In this document: piece by piece, positions 8,584 through 63,472 of the stretch
How positions within the stretch are numbered: position 1 is the stretch's first letter
How the letters are laid out: the number at the start of each line of letters is the position of its first letter
Origin: an uncultured Mycoplasmatota bacterium
Lineage (GTDB): Bacteria; Bacillota_I; Bacilli_A; RF39; UBA660
NCBI GenBank assembly: GCA_900553835.1
Contig: USFF01000003.1
Span: forward strand, 4,183 to 68,182
Length of the DNA stretch: 64,000 nucleotides
Direction: 5' to 3'
The notes under the pieces: model-generated
Told to the model about the DNA's origin: nothing
Database searches by the model: none
What the model saw: only the letters and a program-made list of their open reading frames with translations
Position numbers and translations under genes: made by a program

Positions 8584-8614
8584 AAGGTTCTTTTTTAGAG
8601 AACCTTTTTTAAGT
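8584..8614. terminator. Bidirectional rho-independent terminator (GGTTCT-loop-AGAACC flanked by A- and T-runs)
   Basis: Hairpin plus U-tracts, located between the convergent clpP and the 8595..9497 ORF. Confidence 0.5.
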
Positions 8615-9497
8615 AGTATACATTATGTTTTTCTTTTATAGCGCTATATAAAGTACTCTGTAAAAGACTAGCAACTTTTTCTGTTTTTGCTGCGACACTT
8701 TTATTAATTTTGTTAATTAGTTCTTCATCTAGTCTTAATGATGCTGCTTTTATGTGCGCTAAAGAAATCGCTAATTCTTCTAAAGTTTCTATGTCTTCCA
8801 AGTCTTTTTCTGTGTAGTTTATTATTCTTTTAATTTTATCAATTAACATGCTTAGATAAGCATCTTCTTCAAAAGATATACTTCTAAAATATTTAGCACA
8901 TTTATTCATGTAATATTCACCTGTTAGAACTAATTTTTCTGGTTTTCTGTATTTTATGTCTAGCATAGTTCCTTCCACTATGAATGTTATATAGGCAAGT
9001 GTGTATTTGTATTCTATTAGTTTATTTTTTAATTCTTTACTGTTATTTAAATTTGTGAAGTCATGTAGGTAATATAATACTGAGTTTATCATGTCATATG
9101 TTTGAGATAGTCTTATTGTTTCTACAATTTCATCTACCGCTTTGTTTTTTGATGTTGTTATAGTTTGAAGAGTATCTAATCTTTTATTAATACGAAGAAC
9201 TGCTATATCTTCAATGTTTCCTTCTTTAATAGGGTCGTTATTTATTTTGTGCATAAGTCCCATTACTATGTTATCAGCTAAAGTTATTCTTCTATTTGTA
9301 TTTAGTTTATTTATTTCTCCATCAATTACTTCTTCTAAAAATCTATATCTTTTTATTATTTCATCGTATTCTGGAGTGTCTATTTTTTCATTGATTTCTA
9401 AATTAATTAGCATTTCTAGTAATTTATATTCAGTTTTTGAGAAATTTATTAATTCTCTTACTATACCGTTAACAAATAGTATTTCATTATTATCCAT
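8595..9497 (-). CDS. Hypothetical 300-aa protein, predicted all-helical, divergent from a small XRE regulator
   Basis: Long ORF with no recognised motif. Confidence 0.45.
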   Translation of the reverse strand: MDNNEILFVNGIVRELINFSKTEYKLLEMLINLEINEKIDTPEYDEIIKRYRFLEEVIDGEINKLNTNRRITLADNIVMGLMHKINNDPIKEGNIEDIAVLRINKRLDTLQTITTSKNKAVDEIVETIRLSQTYDMINSVLYYLHDFTNLNNSKELKNKLIEYKYTLAYITFIVEGTMLDIKYRKPEKLVLTGEYYMNKCAKYFRSISFEEDAYLSMLIDKIKRIINYTEKDLEDIETLEELAISLAHIKAASLRLDEELINKINKSVAAKTEKVASLLQSTLYSAIKEKHNVYYLKKVL

Positions 9498-19140: not shown

Positions 19141-20493
19141 TTAATTGTAAACTATTTCATATGGGTTTTCTGGACTTCCATCTCCCTTAGACCATAGGAC
19201 ATCTGTTTTGATTGATGTGACAGGTCTAACCCAGAATGGAGAGATTACAGTATCTAAACTAAATTTACCTGAACCAGTTGAACCGCCTATTTTAAATACC
19301 ATTGTATATTTTGAACTGCTACTTTCGTAAGACCACATAGCCGGACTCATTGTCCAAAAATAATCAGTGCCTGTTGAACTTTCCCCTAGACTATTTTGAT
19401 AATACCAAGCACTTGTATTTTTACTTCCATAGTAGCCTCCTGCATAAGTGATTTCATCATAAGTCATAAGACCAATTGGATATTTTAATTTTGCGTTTTC
19501 ATTTGAAGCACTAAATGCATCTTCTGGAGTAGTACAGTCGTATGTTGGCACTTTTGATCTATAGTAGGCTGCATAATAAAATGTTGATGTTAAACTGTAG
19601 GGAAAATAATCTGCTTTTCCTATGTTCCTATCACTACAATATACTGCAGTTGTGCTTAAATAATCAGCATAATTTATTAATTTGTTAGTTGTAGTACCTG
19701 CTGTATCAGTATAAGTTGTTTGATAAGTTGAATTAGTAATAGTTCTTGTTCCATCGTACCAATTATCTATGTATTGTTTTATTAAACTTTCTACAGTATT
19801 ATTTCTGTTTTTAGCAAGAGTCCCAGATATTCCCCACATGTAACCTGAGTACATAGGATTAGTATCAACACTCCAATAGGCACTTCTTCCTAAATAGCCT
19901 TTTCCATCATGGAAGGTTCCATGAAATAAAAGCCTTATGCTTCCATCTGCATTAGTTCTTATTATTCTCCAGTAGTAGCCCCCAAACTTAACCCAGTTAT
20001 TTGTAGCATTTCCACTAAAATAATATACTGTTGTATCACTTGTGTTATGTACATTCTTTTCTGTTGCTGTATATAATGTTCCAGTGTTTGTTGCCGTAAA
20101 TACGGTGCTGAAATCTGTTCTTGTTTCTACTTTTGGATTATCCTTAAGTATTTTGTTATACAATGTAATTAGTGTTTTTTCTTTAAAATCTATAGTACAA
20201 TACTCTGGCATTTGTATATTAGATAAGCTAACTGTATTATCTTCATTATTATAAGTGGCTATTGTACCATTTTTGCAAGCGATACTATCTATTTCATAAC
20301 CACTTATTAAATCATTATAAGATAAATCTGTTTTTTCTCCATTTAATGTATAAGCAGTTATTCCTGCAGGTTTAGAGAGTATCTTTTCTATTTTAGATAT
20401 TTCTTTTTTACTTTCTTTTTTAGCAGTATTCAAATTAAATGTTAATAACATTAAACTTATTAACAATAAAATTAACATAACATATTTTTTCAT
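19141..20493 (-). CDS. Secreted or membrane-anchored hypothetical protein, strongly Tyr/Thr/Ser/Trp/Asn-rich (450 aa)
   Basis: N-terminal signal/anchor. Highly aromatic composition (GGYYWRIIRTNADGSIRLL, YYAAYYRSK, WYYQNSLG). No family recognised. Confidence 0.5.
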   Translation of the reverse strand: MKKYVMLILLLISLMLLTFNLNTAKKESKKEISKIEKILSKPAGITAYTLNGEKTDLSYNDLISGYEIDSIACKNGTIATYNNEDNTVSLSNIQMPEYCTIDFKEKTLITLYNKILKDNPKVETRTDFSTVFTATNTGTLYTATEKNVHNTSDTTVYYFSGNATNNWVKFGGYYWRIIRTNADGSIRLLFHGTFHDGKGYLGRSAYWSVDTNPMYSGYMWGISGTLAKNRNNTVESLIKQYIDNWYDGTRTITNSTYQTTYTDTAGTTTNKLINYADYLSTTAVYCSDRNIGKADYFPYSLTSTFYYAAYYRSKVPTYDCTTPEDAFSASNENAKLKYPIGLMTYDEITYAGGYYGSKNTSAWYYQNSLGESSTGTDYFWTMSPAMWSYESSSSKYTMVFKIGGSTGSGKFSLDTVISPFWVRPVTSIKTDVLWSKGDGSPENPYEIVYN

Positions 20494-22109: not shown

Positions 22110-22442
22110 TTATTCGTTTTTCTTATATTTAATTTTTTCATCAAATTCTACATAGTCTAGGTATATCATTAGGAGTAAATACCATTTACCTGTAGTTGGA
22201 TCTGACAATATAACATGGTCCCTTCCTGCTTGCTCGATTATGCCAGTAAATTCTTTATCTCTCCAGTTAACTGAGTCTGGAAAACTCATGTATACTTTTG
22301 CTTTTTTCCCTTTGTTATTTCTTAGTATGTTTTCAATGTAACTTTGTTCCATTGGTAATTCGTCATTATCATCTTTAGCATTTACTGGTTCATAACTTGA
22401 GTATGGGATGAAGTCTGAATTTTTGTAATAACTTCCATTCAT
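22110..22442 (-). CDS. Small spore-coat-like protein (possibly GerQ/YwdL family)
   Basis: 110-aa ORF. The family call rests on weak recollection of the C-terminal region. Confidence 0.3.
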   Translation of the reverse strand: MNGSYYKNSDFIPYSSYEPVNAKDDNDELPMEQSYIENILRNNKGKKAKVYMSFPDSVNWRDKEFTGIIEQAGRDHVILSDPTTGKWYLLLMIYLDYVEFDEKIKYKKNE

Positions 22443-26799: not shown

Positions 26800-27318
26800 T
26801 TAAAATATTTTGTCTATTATTTCTTTTATGAAAAATTTGTATTCTACATCATCGGTTTCTTCTGCTTCCATTAAGCACAATGGAGGAAAAAGAACACACC
26901 AGTAATTGTCTCCACTACCAGAACCTATTTTTACTACCATGGATTCATATTCTCCTGCTCCATATTTTACTCCCTTATATATTTTTTCTGGAAAATAGTT
27001 TGTCCCATAATTTATTTTAAAATCCATATTATAATTATTTTCTTTAAATACTTCTGATACTTTGTTTTCTACTAGATTTATATTTTCTTTTATACTTGTT
27101 CTTGCTTCATTTATTGTTTTTGATTTTTCTATTTCTTTTATTACACCGTCAATAGAAGTTTTTACCTGTTCTTTTATGTATAAATCTTTCGGTGCATTAC
27201 TATTTGGTATTATTCTAAATCTTACTGAATTTTTTGGTACAATTACATATTCTTCTTTCGTGTTTACTACTGAGTATACTATGGTTATTAATGCAAGCAC
27301 TATTATGATTTTTTTCAT
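26800..27318 (-). CDS. spoIIR: Stage II sporulation protein R
   Basis: Signal peptide. SpoIIR motifs FRIIPNSNAPKD and GSGDNYWCVLFPPLC. Confidence 0.8.
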   Translation of the reverse strand: MKKIIIVLALITIVYSVVNTKEEYVIVPKNSVRFRIIPNSNAPKDLYIKEQVKTSIDGVIKEIEKSKTINEARTSIKENINLVENKVSEVFKENNYNMDFKINYGTNYFPEKIYKGVKYGAGEYESMVVKIGSGSGDNYWCVLFPPLCLMEAEETDDVEYKFFIKEIIDKIF

Positions 27319-29617: not shown

Positions 29618-29776
29618 TTTACAATCATTCCTTTTCCACTAAAATTATACTGAATTTTTTCAATAAATCAAGTCATTTTGTTAATCTTTTTTATTATATT
29701 CATATTTATTGTAAATTATATGTGTTTTTTACTTATATTTTTTTATATTTTTTTAATAATAATTGTAGGTGAATTT

Positions 29777-31717
29777 ATGAAAAGTAAGAGGTTAAAGATA
29801 TTAATTTTGTGTTATAAAATTTTTTGCTATTTTGTAATATTTATTTTTTTAGCACTTTTTGGATTTTATTTATATGCGTACATTACCCCTAAAATTGATG
29901 TACAAAGTAGCAATAGAATTATTTTATATGATGACAGTGATGAAGTTTTTTACCAAAATACTGCCACTAGTTCTTGGGTTAGTTTAGATGAAATTAGTCC
30001 TTATGCTATTAAAGGAATTGTGGATACAGAAGATAAAAACTTTTATAGTCATAATGGTTTTGATTATATGAGAATTATGAAAGCACTTTATAATGATATT
30101 AAAGCTGGTAATTTAAAGGAAGGCGCGAGTACAATTAGTCAGCAATATATTAAAAATTTGTTTTTGACTTTTGATAAGACTTGGGAAAGAAAACTAGAAG
30201 AGGCTTATCTTACTTTTGAACTTGAAGTTCATTATAATAAGAATGAGATCCTAGAAGGTTACATGAATACAATTAATTATGGGGCAGGTAATTATGGAAT
30301 AGAAGAGGCAAGTCTTTATTATTTTAATAAACATGCTAAAGATCTTACTCTTGCTGAAGCTTCTATTATAGTTGGTATTCCTAAAAATCCTACATATTAT
30401 AATCCAGTTTATTATTACGATAATGCTAAAGCTAGACAAAAAATAGTTTTAAATAGCATGTTTAATATGGGACATATTACTAAGGAAGAGATGGAAAATG
30501 CTTATAATGAAGAACTTTCTTTTTATGGTAAGAAGTCTAGTAATTTTATTGTTAGTTCGTTGTACTATAAAGATGCGGTTATGGATGAACTTAATTCAAT
30601 AGATGAAATTCCTAAAAGTTTAATAGAAACTGGGGGTTTAAAGGTTTATACTTATCTAAATAGTGATGCACAGAGAAATTTAGAAAATATTATTTCTGAA
30701 GAAATGGAAAACACTGGCGAGTTAGAAGTAGGGGCTATGATAAGAAGTCCTAAAAATGGCGCAATTGTAGCTCTTATTGGTGGCACTAATTATAATGAGA
30801 CAGAGTATAATAGAGTTACAAAGGCTAAAAGGCAAGTTGGTTCTACTTTTAAACCTATTCTTTATTATTCTGCTTTAGAAAACGGAATGACTGCTACTAG
30901 TACTTTTGTAAGTGAAAAGACAACATTTTCTTTAGGGGAAGATGAGAGTTATTCTCCAAGTAATTTTGCTGATAAGTACGCTAATAAGTCTATAACTATG
31001 GCGGATGCTCTTGTACTTTCAGATAATATTTTTGCTGTTAAGACTCATTTGTTTCTTGGTACTGATAATTTAAAGAATACAGCAAAAAGAATGGGTATTA
31101 AAACAAGTCTACCTAGTAATGCTAGTTTGGCTTTAGGTACTAGTGAAATTAATATGGTTGATTATAGTAATGCTTTTCAAACTCTTGCAAATTATGGAAT
31201 TAGAAATAATCCTGTTTATATAAAAAAAGTAACTGATTTAAATGACAATGTAATATATGAAGCTAAATATGAAGAGGAAAATGTTTTAGATAAGAGGTAT
31301 GTATATATTTTAAATGAGATGCTAACAAACTCTTATAATTATGACTATATTGACTATGCTTCACCAACACTTTTAAGTGTTAAAAATTTAATTAATCATA
31401 AGTATGCAGTTAAGTCAGGAACTACTGATACAGATTATTGGGTTGTTGGGTATAACCCAGAAGCTCTTGTTCTAGTCTGGAATGGTTATGATGATAATAG
31501 GTCGGTTGAAAAGGTTTCTTCAAAGATTACAAAGAAAATATGGGCTAGAAGTATAGAAGCTTATCTCGGAGAAAAAGAGAGTGCATGGTATAATATTCCT
31601 AGAGGAGTTACAGGTGCGATTGTTAACCCAATAAGCGGAAGTACTACTGATTTAAGTGTAAAAGATCTTATGTTTTATGTTAAGGGAACTGAACCTGATT
31701 ATGTTAAGGAATATTAA
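29777..31717 (+). CDS. Class A penicillin-binding protein (glycosyltransferase GT51 plus transpeptidase)
   Basis: Start reset to MKSKRLKIL (AGGTGA SD). GT51 motifs EDKNFYSHNGFD and GASTISQQYIKN; transpeptidase motifs STFKP, SDN, KSGTT. Confidence 0.85.
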   Translation: MKSKRLKILILCYKIFCYFVIFIFLALFGFYLYAYITPKIDVQSSNRIILYDDSDEVFYQNTATSSWVSLDEISPYAIKGIVDTEDKNFYSHNGFDYMRIMKALYNDIKAGNLKEGASTISQQYIKNLFLTFDKTWERKLEEAYLTFELEVHYNKNEILEGYMNTINYGAGNYGIEEASLYYFNKHAKDLTLAEASIIVGIPKNPTYYNPVYYYDNAKARQKIVLNSMFNMGHITKEEMENAYNEELSFYGKKSSNFIVSSLYYKDAVMDELNSIDEIPKSLIETGGLKVYTYLNSDAQRNLENIISEEMENTGELEVGAMIRSPKNGAIVALIGGTNYNETEYNRVTKAKRQVGSTFKPILYYSALENGMTATSTFVSEKTTFSLGEDESYSPSNFADKYANKSITMADALVLSDNIFAVKTHLFLGTDNLKNTAKRMGIKTSLPSNASLALGTSEINMVDYSNAFQTLANYGIRNNPVYIKKVTDLNDNVIYEAKYEEENVLDKRYVYILNEMLTNSYNYDYIDYASPTLLSVKNLINHKYAVKSGTTDTDYWVVGYNPEALVLVWNGYDDNRSVEKVSSKITKKIWARSIEAYLGEKESAWYNIPRGVTGAIVNPISGSTTDLSVKDLMFYVKGTEPDYVKEY

Positions 31718-31719
31718 AA

Positions 31720-31746
31720 AGATTAAACGTTTATTTTGTTTAATCT
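31720..31746. terminator. Bidirectional terminator hairpin AGATTAAAC-N9-GTTTAATCT between the convergent PBP and noc genes
   Basis: Perfect 9-bp stem, with T-rich tracts on both strands. The noc stop codon lies in the 3' arm. Confidence 0.5.
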
Positions 31747-32846
31747 TTCTTTATTTTTATTATTATTTGGTACATGTCTTCAAAATCAAATTCTTCTGTG
31801 TCAACATTAAAGCCCATGTTTTCTATTTTTCTTGCTTCTTCTCTAGCACTGTTGATTGCATTTTTGATGTTCTTACCTTCATTGATTGGTGTATTTTGTT
31901 CTATTTCAGGTTCTTTTGTACTTTCATATTCTGCTATTATGCTACTTTTTGGAATACTTTGTGTGTTTTCTAATGCAGGTTTTTCAAAGCTTTGAGAAGG
32001 TAATTCAAAATCCATTATTTCTGGTTCTATTTCTTGGAATGGATTTATCATTACTTCTTTTTTCTCTACTGTAGGCTCTGGTTTTATAGGAACTTGCGGT
32101 TTTAAAAGAGCATCAATATCTTTAGGTACGTATTCAGTTATTATATCTTTTGACTCTTGTTTTTCTTTTTCTATATCTACATCATTAGGATTAATACTCA
32201 TAGGTGTTTCTCTTTTTATTTCGTTATTTTGTGGTCTTTCTTTACCTAATAGTTTTGCTATTTCTTCATCAGCTTGTCTTACAGTTAATCTTTCATTCAT
32301 TATTCTGTTTAACATGTTAATTTGTTCAGTGTTGTCTGTTATGTTTAATAAACTTCTTGCATGTCTTTCAGATATTTTGTTATGAAGTAATGCTTCTTTT
32401 ACTGGTATTGTCAGATTTAAAAGTCTTAATTTGTTAGCTATAGTCGATTGTGCTACTCCCATTCTTGCTGCTAAACTCTCTTGTGTCAGATAACCCATAT
32501 CTAATATTTTTTTGTAACTTTGTGCTTCTTCAATAGCAGTTAAGTCTTTTCTCTGTAAGTTTTCTACTACAGCAACTTCAGCACTTTTTTGATCATCTAT
32601 ATTCATAATGACAGCTGGAACAGTTTTTAGGCCTGCCAAAACAGAAGCCTTGTATCTTCTTTCTCCAGCAATTATTTCAAATTTGTCTCCAATTCTTCTA
32701 AGTACTAATGGTTGGATTATTCCATGCATCTTTATCGATTCAGATAACTCTTTTAATTCCTTTTCATCAAAAGCAAGTCTTGGTTGGAACCTGTTAGGAA
32801 TTATGTCATCTATGTTTACATTAATTATTTCATTTTCTCGGTTCAT
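31740..32846 (-). CDS. noc: ParB-family nucleoid occlusion protein Noc-like (368 aa), with no adjacent parA/soj or spo0J
   Basis: ParB N-terminal domain (PNRFQPR, GIIQP, IAGERRYKA). The HTH region carries Noc-type residues (QSTIANKLRLL, KISERHAR) rather than the Spo0J-type (PHIANHLRLL, LSMGHGR). Conserved acidic/hydrophobic C-terminus. Located directly after rsmG, as in B. subtilis. Confidence 0.7.
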   Translation of the reverse strand: MNRENEIINVNIDDIIPNRFQPRLAFDEKELKELSESIKMHGIIQPLVLRRIGDKFEIIAGERRYKASVLAGLKTVPAVIMNIDDQKSAEVAVVENLQRKDLTAIEEAQSYKKILDMGYLTQESLAARMGVAQSTIANKLRLLNLTIPVKEALLHNKISERHARSLLNITDNTEQINMLNRIMNERLTVRQADEEIAKLLGKERPQNNEIKRETPMSINPNDVDIEKEKQESKDIITEYVPKDIDALLKPQVPIKPEPTVEKKEVMINPFQEIEPEIMDFELPSQSFEKPALENTQSIPKSSIIAEYESTKEPEIEQNTPINEGKNIKNAINSAREEARKIENMGFNVDTEEFDFEDMYQIIIKIKKD

Positions 32847-32936
32847 ATCTACAGCCCCTTTATTTATTTATTCTATTATTATTGTACTTTATTTTTTTTG
32901 TTTTTTCAAGTACTTTGATTAAAAAAACTAAAAGTA

Positions 32937-36927: not shown

Positions 36928-36943
36928 TATTTCCCGGGAAATA
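36928..36943. promoter_or_regulatory. Noc-binding-site-type palindrome TATTTCCCGGGAAATA (matches the B. subtilis NBS consensus ATTTCCCGGGAAAT)
   Basis: Perfect 16-bp GC-cored palindrome in an AT-rich intergenic region between jag and mnmE. An identical copy lies at 55141-55156. Confidence 0.5.
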
Positions 36944-42035: not shown

Positions 42036-42078
42036 ACTCACTTTGTTATTATATCGTCCCAAGAAAGGGGGTATATGG

Positions 42079-42531
42079 ATGTATAATATCAATGATGAGA
42101 CTTTAGCAGTTTTGCCTGTTAATAGAAATAACTGTGAAATACTTGAAAAAAATGCTAATTTAATTATTAAATGTTCATCTTTAAAAGTTATTGAATATAG
42201 TTGTGAGTATTTCGGTGTTCAATATAAAAATAGAGTTAATTGTACTTATAACTTCATAAGAACAAGATATAAGGCTCCAGTTGTAATTGAAGAACATAGT
42301 AGAATTATATTTTTTCCTCTTGTATCACCTAAAAATGAAAATAATCTTTGGATAAGTTATAATAATATTTTAGATTATTGTCCTAGTAAGTGGAAAAAAG
42401 AAACAAAAGTTAAATTTAAAAACGGTGTTTCTATTGATGTTCCAGTCTCATTTTATATTTTTAACTGTCAATATTCAAAAGCAGCAAGACTTTATTCTTC
42501 TTATGAGATAAGAACTTCAAAAAAATGGTAG
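42079..42531 (+). CDS. comK: ComK-family competence transcription factor homologue (150 aa)
   Basis: Start reset to MYNINDE (AAAGGGGG SD 7 nt upstream). Blocks recalled from B. subtilis ComK align: AVLP, SC.FFG..Y..R...TY, K.P......I.FFP..S......WIS, KF.NG....VP.S...FN.QY..A.L. Confidence 0.65.
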   Translation: MYNINDETLAVLPVNRNNCEILEKNANLIIKCSSLKVIEYSCEYFGVQYKNRVNCTYNFIRTRYKAPVVIEEHSRIIFFPLVSPKNENNLWISYNNILDYCPSKWKKETKVKFKNGVSIDVPVSFYIFNCQYSKAARLYSSYEIRTSKKW

Positions 42532-48229: not shown

Positions 48230-48781
48230 TGTTCCACGTGGAACATTTGGAGATTATATGATAATCTCCTTTTTTTATATATTTTTTGTTAAAGACTAAA
48301 TTTATTTTGAAATTTTGTGTGTTAAGTTTATTGTTTTTTTATAAAATGTTTAAATGCAACAATTTAACAATGTTCCACGTGGAACATTGTTAAAAATCAA
48401 AATAAAACTTCGAATTAAAATATGTTAATTTTTTTTGCTGATTTTGGTTAACATATAAATAATTTTTATCGTTTTTAAAGTTAAGCATTATAGAATGTTT
48501 CACGTGAAACATTCTATTTAAACATTTTAATGTTAAATTTTATATTAAAATGTTCTCTTATTTTTTTAATAGTTCAATTTAATGTTCCACGTGGAACATT
48601 AAATAATTACTATTATTTATAAAATTGTTTTTTTTTATAATTTTTATAGTTATTAACTTTCATGTATTAAAATCTGCTATGATTGTCACTTAATAATTAT
48701 AATTATAAGCATTTATTTCTGAAATAGTATAATTTTAAGTTATTAACATTTTTTTGCAAAACTTATGTTCCACGTGAAACA
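48230..48781. repeat. Array of five parS (ParB/Spo0J centromere) palindromes in the non-coding region downstream of gyrA. Cores at 48230-48245, 48371-48386, 48496-48511, 48583-48598 and 48766-48781.
   Basis: Copies 1, 2 and 4 read TGTTCCACGTGGAACA, copy 3 reads TGTTTCACGTGAAACA, copy 5 reads TGTTCCACGTGAAACA. All match the parS consensus TGTTNCACGTGAAACA. The flanks extend to perfect palindromes of 20-30 bp (for example 48364-48393, 30 bp). Confidence 0.75.
48249..48276 (+). terminator. Rho-independent terminator of gyrA (GGAGATTAT-ATG-ATAATCTCC followed by T7)
   Basis: Perfect 9-bp stem, 3-nt loop, U-tract; 23 nt after the gyrA stop. Confidence 0.65.
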
Positions 48782-48841
48782 TTAGATAGATTTTAAACTA
48801 TAAAAATTGATTGTAAGTTGTTTATTTGATATAATCTAGTT

Positions 48842-48919
48842 GTGCAACAAATGGCATAGAAACAGGTCAGGACTGGAAAGTAGCAGCTTTAATATTAACC
48901 ATTTGTGTGCACTTTTTTT
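48842..48919 (+). ncRNA. ffs: Small signal-recognition-particle RNA (4.5S/scRNA-type, about 75 nt) with its own TTGATT-N17-TATAAT promoter at 48807-48835
   Basis: A single long hairpin. The 5' GUGCAACAAAUGG pairs with the 3' CCAUUUGUGUGCAC. The apical CAGGUCAGGACUGGAAAGUAGCAGC matches SRP RNA domain IV (E. coli CAGGUCAGGUCCGGAAGGAAGCAGC), with a compensatory ACU/AGU helix closing the GGAA tetraloop. A U7 tail follows. Confidence 0.55.
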
Positions 48920-54568: not shown

Positions 54569-55432
54569 ATGATACAAAGAAGTTATTTAGATAGTAAATC
54601 AAATTGTTATATAATTCCTACACCAATTGGAAATATGGAAGATATTACTTTGAGAGCAATTAGGCTTCTAAAGAAAGTTGATGCTATTTTTGCTGAAGAT
54701 ACTAGGGTTACTCAAAATTTACTTACTAATTTAAAAATTAAAAATAAAATTTATCAGTGTCAAAAATTTAATGAAATAAAAGCTAGCAAACTTATGATTA
54801 AATTGCTTAATGAAGGCAAGAATATAGCTGTTGTAACAGATAGAGGGACTCCATTAATAAGTGATCCTGGGTATGTGGCACTTAAAAGTGTTGTTAAAGA
54901 AGGTTATAATATTATTGCTTTGCCAGGCGCTAGTGCTTTACTCCCGGCAATTAATATGTCTAATTTAGATCAAGACAAATTTTTATTTTATGGATTTTTA
55001 GATTCTAAAGAATCGGCATTAATTAAAGAACTTGAAAGCATAAAAGATTTAAAGTTTACAATTATTTTATATGAAGCACCACATAGACTTTATAAAACTT
55101 TACAAAATGTCTTAAAAATATTGGGAAATAGGCAGATTAGTATTTCCCGGGAAATAACTAAACTTCATGAAGAGGTTTTTAGGGGAAGCGTTTTGGAAGC
55201 TTTGGATAACTATAAAGGTGATGTTAAAGGTGAAATAGTTATTGTAATAGAAAAAGGAAATACTACAAATAATATTGATGATGCTTATTTAAAATGTGTA
55301 GAACTTGTTTCTTTAGGAATGTCTAGTAAAAATGCTATTAAGTATATTTCTAGAGAATTGGGCGTTAGTAAAAATGAACTTTATGATATGTATGAGGTGA
55401 AGAAAAATGAAACTGATAGTGGGATTAGGTAA
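54569..55432 (+). CDS. rsmI: 16S rRNA (cytidine1402-2'-O)-methyltransferase RsmI
   Basis: Start reset to MIQRSYLDSK (GAGAGGTGA SD). TPIGN motif; tetrapyrrole-methylase fold. Confidence 0.85.
   Translation: MIQRSYLDSKSNCYIIPTPIGNMEDITLRAIRLLKKVDAIFAEDTRVTQNLLTNLKIKNKIYQCQKFNEIKASKLMIKLLNEGKNIAVVTDRGTPLISDPGYVALKSVVKEGYNIIALPGASALLPAINMSNLDQDKFLFYGFLDSKESALIKELESIKDLKFTIILYEAPHRLYKTLQNVLKILGNRQISISREITKLHEEVFRGSVLEALDNYKGDVKGEIVIVIEKGNTTNNIDDAYLKCVELVSLGMSSKNAIKYISRELGVSKNELYDMYEVKKNETDSGIR
55141..55156. promoter_or_regulatory. Second copy of the Noc-binding-site-type palindrome TATTTCCCGGGAAATA, inside the rsmI coding sequence (codons I-S-R-E-I)
   Basis: Identical 16-mer to 36928-36943. The GC-rich core CCCGGG is rare in this AT-rich sequence. 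Confidence 0.45.
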
Positions 55433-59664: not shown

Positions 59665-60165
59665 ATGAATACTGGAATTGTAAGGAAAATTGATGAATTA
59701 GGTAGAATAGTTATTCCAAAAGAAATTAGAAAAAGTTTAAATATTAGAAATGGCGAAGATCTTCAAATATTTATTAGAGATGAAGAAATTGTTTTAAAAA
59801 AATATAAAAAATTATTAACTGTAAAAGATAGTGCAATAAAATATTTATATTCATTTAGAAAAATAACAGATAGTACTGTGTTTATAACGGATAAGGATAA
59901 AATTATAGCTAGTACATTAGAAAATCTTCTTGGTGAGAAAATAGATGATAAAATTTTAAATTTAATTGAGGAAAGAAAAAGTGAAGATGGTTATTCTTTA
60001 AAAATGGGGAATAATATTATAAATAAGTATTATTATGCATTACCAATTATTATTGATGCTGATGCAATCGGAAGTATTATTATTGTAAATGATCTTCAAA
60101 TTAATGAAAAAGATAAACTACTTTCTAATGTTTTGCATATACTTTTAACGATGGAATTAAGTTAA
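59665..60165 (+). CDS. spoVT: Stage V sporulation protein T (AbrB-type N-terminal domain plus GAF-like C-terminus)
   Basis: N-terminal SpoVT/AbrB swapped-hairpin motif (MNTGIVRKIDELGRIVIPKEIR). Length and position after mfd match B. subtilis. Confidence 0.75.
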   Translation: MNTGIVRKIDELGRIVIPKEIRKSLNIRNGEDLQIFIRDEEIVLKKYKKLLTVKDSAIKYLYSFRKITDSTVFITDKDKIIASTLENLLGEKIDDKILNLIEERKSEDGYSLKMGNNIINKYYYALPIIIDADAIGSIIIVNDLQINEKDKLLSNVLHILLTMELS

Positions 60166-60276
60166 ATTTACGATTTTTTTTAAAAAAAACTTGAAATATA
60201 ATCGTTTTCATGGTATATTACTTAAGCGAAAAGGTTTCTATAACTTAAATAAGTTATGGCGAAAGGAGAATGTAAT

Positions 60277-60558: not shown

Positions 60559-61011
60559 ATGAAAATAGGAATTGCTTCTGATCATAGAGGTTATAAGGCT
60601 AAAGAAAAATTAAAGAAATATTTAATTAGAAAGAACATTGAGTTTATTGATTATGGAACATTATCGAGTGAAAGTGTTGATTATCCAGAATATGCTCTTG
60701 AAGTTTGTAAAGCAGTTTTAAATGAGGATGTTGAACTCGGGGTTTTAATATGTGGAACTGGAATTGGGATGAGCATTGCGGCTAATAAAGTTAAAGGTAT
60801 AATGTGTGCTAAAGTTGATTGTTATGAGGAAGCTAAACTAGCTAGAGAACATAATCATGCAAATGTTATAAGTTTTTCGTCAGAGTTATTTACTTCTGAA
60901 ATGAAAGACATTATTGATGCATTTTTAAAAGCTAAACCTCTTGAAGAAGAAAGGTATTTAAGAAGAATTGATGAAATAAAAGCAATTGAAAAGAAAAAAA
61001 ACTATAAATAA
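60559..61011 (+). CDS. rpiB: Ribose-5-phosphate isomerase B
   Basis: MKIGIASDHRGY N-terminus and the LICGTGIGMSIAANK active-site region. Confidence 0.85.
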   Translation: MKIGIASDHRGYKAKEKLKKYLIRKNIEFIDYGTLSSESVDYPEYALEVCKAVLNEDVELGVLICGTGIGMSIAANKVKGIMCAKVDCYEEAKLAREHNHANVISFSSELFTSEMKDIIDAFLKAKPLEEERYLRRIDEIKAIEKKKNYK

Positions 61012-61058
61012 TAATGTGTTTTATGCATATTATTATTATTTTTGCATAAAATTTAGTA

Positions 61059-61951
61059 TGAAAAAATATATTATTATAATACCTTTGTTAATTATTCTTT
61101 ATTTTTTAACTTTAAAGGATAATTCTATAGAACAAGAAAATATAACAAATAAAGATGTTTTTTTAGTTAGTGTAAGTTATGAAGGTAACATTTATAAAAT
61201 GCCCTTTAATGATTACCTTATTGGTGTTGTTTCATGTGAGATGCCTGCACTTTTTGATGATGAAGCATTGAAAGCAGGCGCAGTTGCAGCAAGGACTTTT
61301 TATATGTACAATTATTTAAATATTTCAAATTATTTAGCTAATTCTAGTGATCAATGTTTTATAAACGAAGATGTAATGAAAAAGAACTGGGGTAATAATT
61401 TTGATGAGTATTATAATAAAATTAAAAATGCTGTTGTATCTACTAATGATGAAGTTATAATGTTTAATAATGAGATTATTCATTCTTATTATTTTAGTAT
61501 GTCAAATGGGTTTACAGAGGATGCCTCCTATGTATTTAATGAATCAAAGCCGTACTTAGTAAGTGTGAGTTCAGCATGGGAAAAAAGTTTAAAAACATAT
61601 GAAAAAGAATTATTCGTTTCAAAAGAAGAAATTAAAAGTAAGTTAAATTTATCTACCAATGATTTTGATATAGCTATTAAGTCTAGGTACGAAAGTGGAA
61701 GAGTGAATGAAGTAGAAGTGTTAGGAAAAGTATATTCAGGAATTTTTTTTAGAAAGTTATTTGGACTTAGGAGTGCAGATTTTGATGTGACAAAAAAACA
61801 AGATGGTTTTGTTTTTACAACCAGAGGTTATGGTCATGGTGTTGGTATGAGTCAGTATGGCGCTAATATGATGGCTAAAGAAGGATATTTATATGATGAA
61901 ATATTAAGTTATTATTATAAAGGTACTAATTTATCAAAAAATAGTGTATAA
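61059..61951 (+). CDS. spoIID: Stage II sporulation protein D (SpoIID, lytic transglycosylase)
   Basis: Start set at MKKYIIIIPLL. SpoIID motif EALKAGAVAARTF and a conserved C-terminal region. Confidence 0.75.
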
Positions 61952-62761: not shown

Positions 62762-63472
62762 ATGATAAATTTTGTAATAGTAGAGGATAATCCTTTACAT
62801 CTTAAAAAGACTGAGTCATATATTGTTAAGTATATGATGCAAAATACACTTGAGTTTGAAGTAATTAAATTTGACAAACTAAGTGAAAAATTATTTAAAT
62901 ATGTTTCTAATACTGAAAATAATAATATTTACATATTAGATTATGAATTAGGTAATGGTATTGCACTTGATGTTGCAAGAAAAATTAGAAAGTATGAGTG
63001 GAGAAGTCCTATAATTATTTTTACTGTTAATGGAGGAGGTATGGCGCTTAGCTCATTTAAACAAAGATTACAAATACTAGATTTTATTAATAAGCGTACT
63101 GAGCCTGAAAAAAATCTGTTTGAATTATTTGATATTTGTTTGAGACAACTTAATGTAAGTAAAAATTTTAAATACTCTGTTGGTTCTAGTACTTTTACAA
63201 TTGATTATAATAGTATCCTATATGTTTATAAAGATACTGTTGATAGAAAGACAGTAGTTGTAACTGATAATGATGAGTTTGTTTTAAATATTACTTTGAG
63301 TAAAGCTAAAAGTTTATTAAGTAATGATTTTGTAACTACTCATAAATCTTATATTGTTAATTTAAGAAGAGTTGTTAAGCTAGATTGGAAGGAATGCACT
63401 GTTACATTTGATAATGGTACAGTTGAACCTTTGTTATCTAGAACTCACAAGAAGGAGTTGTCAGGAAAATGA
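62762..63472 (+). CDS. LytTR-family response regulator (AgrA/ComE-like)
   Basis: Receiver-like N-terminus (VEDN ... ILDYEL) and C-terminal LytTR DNA-binding domain (HKSYIVNLRRV). Confidence 0.75.
   Translation: MINFVIVEDNPLHLKKTESYIVKYMMQNTLEFEVIKFDKLSEKLFKYVSNTENNNIYILDYELGNGIALDVARKIRKYEWRSPIIIFTVNGGGMALSSFKQRLQILDFINKRTEPEKNLFELFDICLRQLNVSKNFKYSVGSSTFTIDYNSILYVYKDTVDRKTVVVTDNDEFVLNITLSKAKSLLSNDFVTTHKSYIVNLRRVVKLDWKECTVTFDNGTVEPLLSRTHKKELSGK

Follow-up and report, generated by a model that had tools for sequence, protein, structure and literature searches.

A Noc-lineage ParB protein without the N-terminal membrane-targeting helix, encoded near the replication origin of uncultured low-GC Bacilli

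The accepted model of Noc, a nucleoid occlusion protein, rests on one element, an N-terminal amphipathic helix that is released by the binding of cytidine triphosphate (CTP) and ties DNA bound at Noc-binding sites (NBS) to the membrane. All Noc homologs examined by Adams 2015 (PMC4331003) had this helix, an unrelated amphipathic helix could substitute for the native one, and the truncated variant NocNdelta10 was not peripheral. The helix constitutes the output of the CTP switch (Jalal 2021, PMC8429893), and helix-less Noc of Bacillus subtilis is inactive (Adams 2015, PMC4331003; Jalal 2021, PMC8429893). DNA recognition depends on Q173, which reads adenine 1 of the NBS, and on R201, which reads cytosine 6, while a single lysine at position 179 or 184 suffices as permissive residue (Jalal 2020, PMC7383237). 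Here we describe a noc-like gene located on a 64-kb stretch of contig USFF01000003.1 (assembly GCA_900553835.1, hereafter the window) from an uncultured Mycoplasmatota bacterium. Its product lacks one defining Noc feature, the membrane helix, and possesses the others. We found no description of anchor-less Noc proteins in the literature.

About 26 residues at the N-terminus of Noc, which form the amphipathic membrane-targeting helix alpha1, helix alpha2 and the loop, have no counterpart in the window protein, whose residue 6 is matched in the alignment with residue 3 of the crystallized NocNdelta26 construct (7ng0). The open reading frame (ORF) begins with MNRENEIINVN, and an N-terminal extension is impossible because an in-frame TAA is located 7 codons upstream (Table 1). 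A second in-frame TAA is found at 32889-32891, 14 codons 5' of the start, and the candidate alternative start farther upstream was rejected on account of these two stops. An earlier note on this DNA had reported the absence of the helix and had given an overlooked upstream start encoding one as a result that would speak against its reading; the in-frame TAA excludes such a start, and the absence is further confirmed by the relatives of the protein. About 41 orthologs of its clade, from independent genomes, start 5-12 residues before the sequence IIPNRFQPR, with stop codons just upstream. The best 150 matches (263-848 residues) of an exhaustive HMMER search against 1.84 billion cluster representatives gave the same picture: 14-21 residues precede PNRFQPR in 145 of the 150, vs 41 in B. 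subtilis Noc, and of the remaining five, three were unscorable and two have 29 or 53 residues at this place. Close relatives are present on hundreds of contigs, several from human-gut metagenome assemblies, and the NCBI labels of related genomes include 'Clostridium sp. CAG:628' and metagenome-assembled genomes of 'uncultured Bacilli'; at the order level, an RFN20-, RF39- or ML615J-28-like placement within the Bacilli is a guess that leans on PMC10868615. A hydrophobic-moment scan for a substitute amphipathic helix was uninformative, as it did not single out the known B. subtilis helix. Judged from the sequences, the protein probably has no intrinsic membrane anchor.

The assignment to the Noc lineage, together with predicted binding to the NBS, is the part of the interpretation that we hold with the greatest confidence. 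The hidden Markov model (HMM) nucleoid_noc of NCBIfam (TIGR04285) matches the protein in two stretches with 285.2 bits, vs 163 bits with the generic parB model. Among solved structures, Noc entries score highest (7nfu with 201 bits and 7ol9 with 184 bits, vs at most 164 bits for Spo0J/ParB), the same two entries were top-ranked by Foldseek using an AlphaFold2 (AF2) model of the monomer, and the modeled DNA-binding domain superposes on the Noc-NBS co-crystal 6y93 with a root-mean-square deviation of 1.3-1.8 A. In a neighbor-joining tree (188 columns, 200 bootstraps, two canonical Noc sequences included) a clade made up of the window protein and its relatives has 98% support and is sister to Bacillus/Geobacillus Noc (88% bootstrap), and the Spo0J sequences form a clade of their own (95%). 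The earlier note had called the protein Noc-type rather than Spo0J, with placement in the Spo0J clade as the result that would speak otherwise; HMM scores, solved structures, tree and specificity residues all agree with its reading. Of the B. subtilis sequences used as queries, that of Noc agrees with the 7ol9 alignment over residues 27-232, and those of Spo0J and Soj served as search probes only.

By alignment, residues Q133, K139, N144 and R161 of the window protein correspond to the specificity positions 173, 179, 184 and 201. Three of them are Noc-like, and the fourth is not: position 184 is asparagine instead of lysine. Lysine never occurs at this position in the about 41 aligned clade orthologs, in which glutamine, K179 and arginine are invariant, and is found in 1 of the 150 nearest cluster representatives; the combination QKNR is present in 122 of these 150 representatives (50% identity clusters). 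By analogy with the QKAR-type logic given in the main text of Jalal 2020 (PMC7383237), a QKNR-type protein would be expected to be specific for the NBS. The parS-type combination of R173 with G201 (or another small residue at 201) is absent, glutamine and arginine being found there instead, and the ParA-interaction motif LG[KR]GL is missing from the protein, which has no match to [LFI]G[KR]G[LFI].

Both Pfam matches are far above their cut-offs, and the fold agrees with solved structures. Within the CTP-binding boxes (PxxxQPR, GERRxRA, ENxQR), residues P17, N18, Q21, P22, R23, G61, E62, R63, R64, A67, E95, N96, Q98 and R99 are unvarying in 62 family members. The ParB/CTPase domain is modeled at a predicted local distance difference test (pLDDT) value of about 90, as is the C-terminal domain, a helix followed by two strands, whose 46 residues are kept in the family representatives inspected. 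These invariant motifs make CTP clamping by the window protein probable.

The DNA-binding and C-terminal domains are separated by an expanded linker. In place of the about 85-residue low-complexity insertion of the earlier note, we found that this segment adds about 105-120 residues (residues about 201-322); it is indeed rich in proline (12%) and glutamate (17%), but carries four conserved short motifs and is therefore not plain low complexity. Its net charge is -12, and B. subtilis Noc has about 15 basic residues at the corresponding place. The AF2 model predicts disorder here (pLDDT 43-68, between domains at about 90) and places short helices at residues 225-231, 244-247 and 302-309, i.e. 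at motifs M1, M2 and M4 (Table 1). The linker varies in length from about 80 to 400 residues across relatives and is only 21-57% identical to theirs, vs 58-92% for the folded N-terminal part. Motif M2 is nevertheless found in 35 of the about 41 clade members, and in 37 of 148 linkers of the wider family vs 0.2 in shuffled linkers. As these motifs are conserved inside fast-evolving linkers, a binding function is indicated rather than a plain spacer, and given their acidic character the binding of lipids appears unlikely. M2 (D-I-D-x-L-L-K/R) may resemble the FtsZ C-terminal peptide (D-I-P-x-F-L-R-K), which docks onto FtsA, SepF and EzrA. Recruitment of a partner through the linker is proposed tentatively, at somewhat less than even odds.

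The predicted target of the protein is present nearby. The window has a GC content of 27%, and the switch in its GC skew puts oriC near 38-39 kb. Two perfect copies of the 16-bp NBS, vs about 0.1 expected, were found on the window, one in the jag-mnmE spacer and one inside rsmI, and these two are the sole occurrences of CCCGGG in the 64 kb. About 20 related loci have the jag-mnmE site at this syntenic position, with 0-1 mismatch. A sister species, with 88% identity in GyrA and 72% in Noc, carries both sites at exactly the same positions, and its rsmI site is identical. The TCC and CGG codons that the rsmI site imposes are presumably rare at this GC content. By the conservation of their sequence and position, the NBS sites appear to be under selection. 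Together with Q133, R161 and K139, the conserved perfect sites lend support to the prediction that the NBS, and not parS, is bound. All observed NBS sites lie within about 16 kb of oriC.

Several observations on related loci concern the same sites. NBS-like sequences with 1-2 mismatches are located 56-300 bp upstream of the noc start in four more distant members with very long linkers (L033 at 6291, L035 at 9694, L037 at 4034 and L038 at 9813), where they could serve autoregulation. In L055 (11072), L056 (11056) and L112 (11045), dnaX contains a perfect NBS about 1.05 kb into the gene; the dnaX of the window has none. Four low-GC metagenome loci (L052 8825-9316, L056 8723-9137, L064 8283-9396 and L093 8271-9432), which were found via a DnaX metagenome scan, are only distant relatives (33-60% identity), and are known by their sites and not by their Noc type, carry perfect NBS interleaved with parS or 6-45 bp from it, just upstream of dnaX. 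L052 displays an apparent repeat unit of about 238 bp with one parS and one NBS 58 bp apart, and L064 possesses 7 NBS in 21 kb, out to position 20485.

The parS array that the earlier note had mentioned as being nearby was confirmed: five sites, vs 0.12 expected, are found across oriC from noc, at a distance of 15.4 kb, several of them inside 26-bp perfect palindromes. This array is the target of a Spo0J-type protein and not of the window Noc. The sister-species locus L141 (12590-13189) carries five parS sites at the same place, with TGTTTCACGTGAAACA in place of TGTTCCACGTGGAACA, both half-sites having changed together; since the array is conserved and its half-sites co-change, the presence of a working parS binder somewhere in these genomes is implied. 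No second ParB or ParA was found by tblastn in the 64-kb window, nor in the 10 kb past either window end on longer contigs of the same species. The orphan status of the gene is thus established locally, over about 84 kb around oriC. The absence of soj-spo0J that had been claimed for the locus holds within this range, but the parS array argues for a Spo0J elsewhere in the genome. Among the 120 best hits to the Spo0J of the relative L041, none was on the whole-genome-size contigs of the sister species, and therefore a Spo0J encoded there would be less than about 66% identical to that of L041.

Two candidates for a missing Spo0J were rejected. A weak Spo0J tblastn match (E = 0.52) falls in the ORF 8595..9497, just downstream of whiA, which was examined since soj comes after whiA in relatives; this ORF shows neither ParB features nor a significant match to Pfam. 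The abundant gut Spo0J P0166 belongs to a locus whiA-soj-spo0J whose WhiA is only 42% identical to that of the window, and its contigs never agree in length with those of the clade's Noc or GyrA, which both occur on a contig of 1,214,208 bp. Two ORFs of the window, 8595-9497(-) of 300 residues and 19141-20493(-) of 450 residues, are conserved and have no significant Pfam match; the former occupies the position after whiA where relatives carry soj-spo0J.

The basal relatives L138 and L041, whose loci read rsmG-noc-soj-spo0J-mscS-DUF951-ABG-ychF-rpsF-ssb-rpsR-rplI-dnaB, encode the same anchor-less, long-linker Noc beside soj-spo0J, and the L041 Spo0J has R173 and G201 and groups with Spo0J in the neighbor-joining tree. 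As the anchor-less Noc coexists with Soj-Spo0J in these basal relatives, its design arose in the presence of Soj-Spo0J and not as a replacement of Spo0J. In other relatives a block from uvrB to whiA is located between noc and soj-spo0J, and in the window clade the whole soj-to-rpsR block is gone from the position after noc; as rpsF, ssb and rpsR, all essential, are part of this block, it must have another location in the genome.

We favor, with a probability of roughly 60%, the reading that the window protein is an NBS-specific CTP clamp without a lipid anchor of its own that acts through its linker. The protein would dimerize via its Noc-type C-terminal domain, and Q133 and R161, with the permissive K139, would recognize the 16-bp TATTTCCCGGGAAATA. 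Most likely, as for Noc and ParB, it would close into a CTP-dependent clamp, loading at the few conserved origin-proximal NBS. Carrying no lipid-binding element of its own, it would be the natural equivalent of the engineered NocNdelta26. Without helices alpha1 and alpha2 and their loop, it cannot tether DNA directly to the membrane in the way described for Noc. Its output would pass through the acidic disordered linker of about 120 residues, and a protein partner would be brought to NBS-bound DNA near the origin by the linker motifs, chiefly hydrophobic-[DE]-x-L-L-[KR]. The chromosome would in this way be coupled to division or segregation via proteins and not via lipids. A more specific version, in which NBS clamps beside the parS centromere display an acidic brush that captures a division or segregation factor on origin-proximal DNA, proteins thus replacing lipids in nucleoid occlusion or in the coupling of origin and division, is speculative and on balance improbable; if it were true, the composite parS and NBS repeat units of the related metagenome loci would represent a joint Spo0J/Noc origin organelle.

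A number of points weigh against the clamp-and-linker reading. As helix-less B. subtilis Noc is inactive, the function of the window protein might be unrelated to division. The uninformative hydrophobic-moment scan is compatible with a cryptic amphipathic segment. No linker motif is universal across the family, M3 and M4 being limited to a narrower clade and M2 to about 25% of the wider family, and the indirect tether through a putative partner of the motifs is one that we purely infer. The mapping of NBS covered origin-proximal DNA only. The nucleoid_noc score is under the curated cut-off (285 vs 315 bits), a shortfall that is probably explained by the missing N-terminus and by the split of the match at the linker.

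Alternatively, the protein might have neither a partner nor a role in division, and might act as an NBS-bound origin organizer, a roadblock or a local regulator, with the linker as an entropic spacer. The position of the NBS close to oriC, and beside or inside parS arrays in related loci, would suit such a role, as would the NBS-like sites just upstream of noc in L033, L035, L037 and L038 and the highly variable length of the linker. We nevertheless regard it as unlikely, as the linker motifs are conserved across lineages with folded domains only 58-62% identical.

It is doubtful, too, that the protein performs the canonical Noc function, as a direct membrane tether, via a cryptic lipid-binding segment in the linker or the C-terminal domain. 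The HMM, the structures and the tree all present the rest of the protein as Noc-like, and the replacement of the native helix by an unrelated one (Adams 2015, PMC4331003) shows that an anchor is in principle free to vary in its sequence and position. However, the negatively charged linker contains no cationic amphipathic stretch, its conserved motifs are acidic, and its AF2 helices span only 4-8 residues at low confidence. The C-terminal domain is a match to its counterpart in canonical Noc, a domain that by itself shows no membrane binding, NocNdelta10 not being peripheral (PMC4331003).

That the protein is a substitute for Spo0J, i.e. the sole chromosomal ParB serving the parS array after the loss of soj-spo0J, is very improbable. 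It would account for the absence of another ParB or ParA within about 84 kb of oriC, for the lack of a sister-species match among the 120 best hits to the L041 Spo0J, and for the binder that a conserved parS array needs; yet the protein has Q173 and R201 instead of R173 and G201, and no LG[KR]GL motif. The same specificity residues occur in the Noc of L041 and L138, which have a true Spo0J next door, the tree places the protein with Noc, and perfect NBS are maintained. Only the score under the curated Noc cut-off could be invoked for an artefact (a start called wrongly or a truncation in the assembly) or for decay of noc into a pseudogene, and conservation refutes this reading: the same architecture occurs in about 40 independent genomes and in 145 of 150 cluster representatives, neither the CTP-box nor the DNA-binding residues vary, the intact ORF has a ribosome-binding site, and the NBS is conserved.

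Table 1. Coordinates on the 64-kb window of the noc-like gene, of its signals and domains, and of the candidate binding sites around oriC.
Feature	Coordinates	Strand	Evidence or remark
noc-like gene	31740..32846	-	ORF of 368 aa plus stop codon; Pfam and NCBIfam matches
Ribosome-binding site AAAGGGG	32855..32861	-	8 nt 5' of the noc ATG; read directly off the sequence
In-frame TAA	32868..32870	-	7 codons 5' of the noc start
Promoter-like TTGAAA-17-TACAAT	32881..32909	-	90-bp rsmG-noc spacer; 10/12 consensus positions; consensus match only
N-terminal ParB/CTPase domain, residues 6-98	32553..32831	-	Pfam ParB_N PF02195, E = 5.7e-32, 110 bits
ParB_N box GERR	32655-32666
ParB_N box ENLQR	32550-32564
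DNA-binding domain of the helix-turn-helix (HTH) type, residues 100-199	32250..32549	-	Pfam HTH_ParB PF17762, 105 bits
HTH recognition stretch QSTIANKLRLLN	32415-32450	-	Alignment
ERHAR	32355-32369	-	Alignment
Expanded, disordered, acidic linker, residues 201-322	31881..32246	-	AF2, alignment, composition
M1 DVDIEKEKQESKDII	32139-32183	-	Family pattern [FV]D[VI]D..KIK...DII
M2 KDIDALLKPQ	32094-32123	-	Family pattern h-[DE]-x-L-L-[KR]
M3 INPFQEIEPEIMDFELP	31998-32048	-	Family pattern INPFQE
M4 SSIIAEYES	31920-31946	-	Family pattern S[LI]IEEF[RK]
Noc-type C-terminal dimerization domain, residues 323-368, ending EEFDFEDMYQIIIKIKKD	31743..31880	-	Aligns to B. subtilis Noc C-terminus
Perfect 16-bp NBS TATTTCCCGGGAAATA	36928..36943		jag-mnmE spacer, 4.1 kb upstream of noc
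Perfect 16-bp NBS, inside rsmI	55141..55156		Reads S-I-S-R-E-I-T; TCC and CGG codons
Five-site parS array (context)	48230..48781		Roughly 600-bp spacer between gyrA and the signal recognition particle (SRP) RNA gene

The gene order rnpA-yidC-jag-mnmE-mnmG-rsmG-noc places noc directly after rsmG (gidB), as in the operon rsmG-noc-soj-spo0J, with soj-spo0J not next to it here. Past noc comes a convergent gene encoding a class A penicillin-binding protein (PBP) with Transgly and Transpeptidase domains, so that the convergent PBP neighbor described in the earlier note is indeed in place, followed by rpoE, prfA, prmC, spoIIR, mntP and murA and, after further genes, by rplI and dnaB. The adjacency of noc and the convergent PBP gene is old and is common to every clade member, down to 47% Noc identity. 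The mechanical PBP ORF, 29678-31717(+), has a TTG start and 33 odd hydrophobic residues extra; translation more probably begins with the ATG near 29777 (MKSKRLKIL...).

Elsewhere on the window, the sporulation genes spo0A, gerQ, spoIIR, spoVT and spoIID were found at 1697-2449, 22110-22442, 26800-27318, 59665-60165 and 60986-61951, and bofA in the sister locus L141. The largest contigs of the lineage measure 1.2-1.3 Mb, which, if they are whole genomes, is very small for a spore former. A small gene (42043-42531) is located between dnaN and recF, and its syntenic counterpart in L141 has a Pfam ComK match. The sole two Rfam matches in the window are a small SRP RNA (48838-48918), which immediately follows the parS array, and an L31-Firmicutes leader (60238-60268). 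An agr-like quorum-sensing cassette starts at the right edge of the window (62762-63472) and continues into L134 (10001-12767), with a LytTR regulator, a histidine kinase, a 39-residue peptide gene and AgrB.

These proteins constitute a large, undescribed branch of Noc in uncultured, small-genome, low-GC Bacilli, which comprises at least 150 clusters at 50% identity, is diverse and strongly conserved, has no membrane helix, and keeps the CTPase boxes, the C-terminal domain and the same 16-bp NBS as B. subtilis. Either direct lipid binding is dispensable for nucleoid occlusion, or Noc has a second function, older or derived, at the origin. The Noc-NBS pair is conserved far outside the Bacillales; in these genomes the NBS are few and keep their positions, and some related metagenome loci have them interleaved with parS.

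Comparison with described systems delimits what is shared and what is not. With Noc from B. subtilis and Geobacillus thermoleovorans (TIGR04285; 7nfu, 7ng0, 7ol9, 6y93) the window protein shares the three-domain plan, 44-50% identity in the folded part, Q173, K179 and R201, the same 16-bp NBS and the position of the gene after rsmG. It differs from them by the absence of the N-terminal stretch of about 26 residues that B. subtilis Noc needs to function, by asparagine, serine or alanine in its family instead of lysine at position 184, by an acidic, motif-bearing linker of about 120 residues (80-400 in the family) instead of about 15 basic residues, and, in the window clade, by the lack of soj-spo0J after noc. 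Its natural N-terminus coincides with that of the Ndelta26 construct and recalls the engineered truncations NocNdelta10 (Adams 2015) and NocNdelta26deltaCTD (Jalal 2021); unlike these loss-of-function tools, it is natural and conserved, and comes with a linker and a C-terminal domain. The ParB_N and HTH_ParB fold and the CTPase boxes are common to Spo0J/ParB of ParABS systems, its paralog in the ancestral arrangement rsmG-noc-soj-spo0J (L041, L138), from which it is set apart by the missing LG[KR]GL motif, NBS-type residues, a different C-terminal domain and a separate clade (95%). KorB, VirB and BisD (PMC12704722) are, similarly, ParB-fold CTP switches without ParA whose output is other than segregation; they are distant in sequence (KorB about 25% identical) and act at other sites, whereas the window protein is a close relative of Noc.

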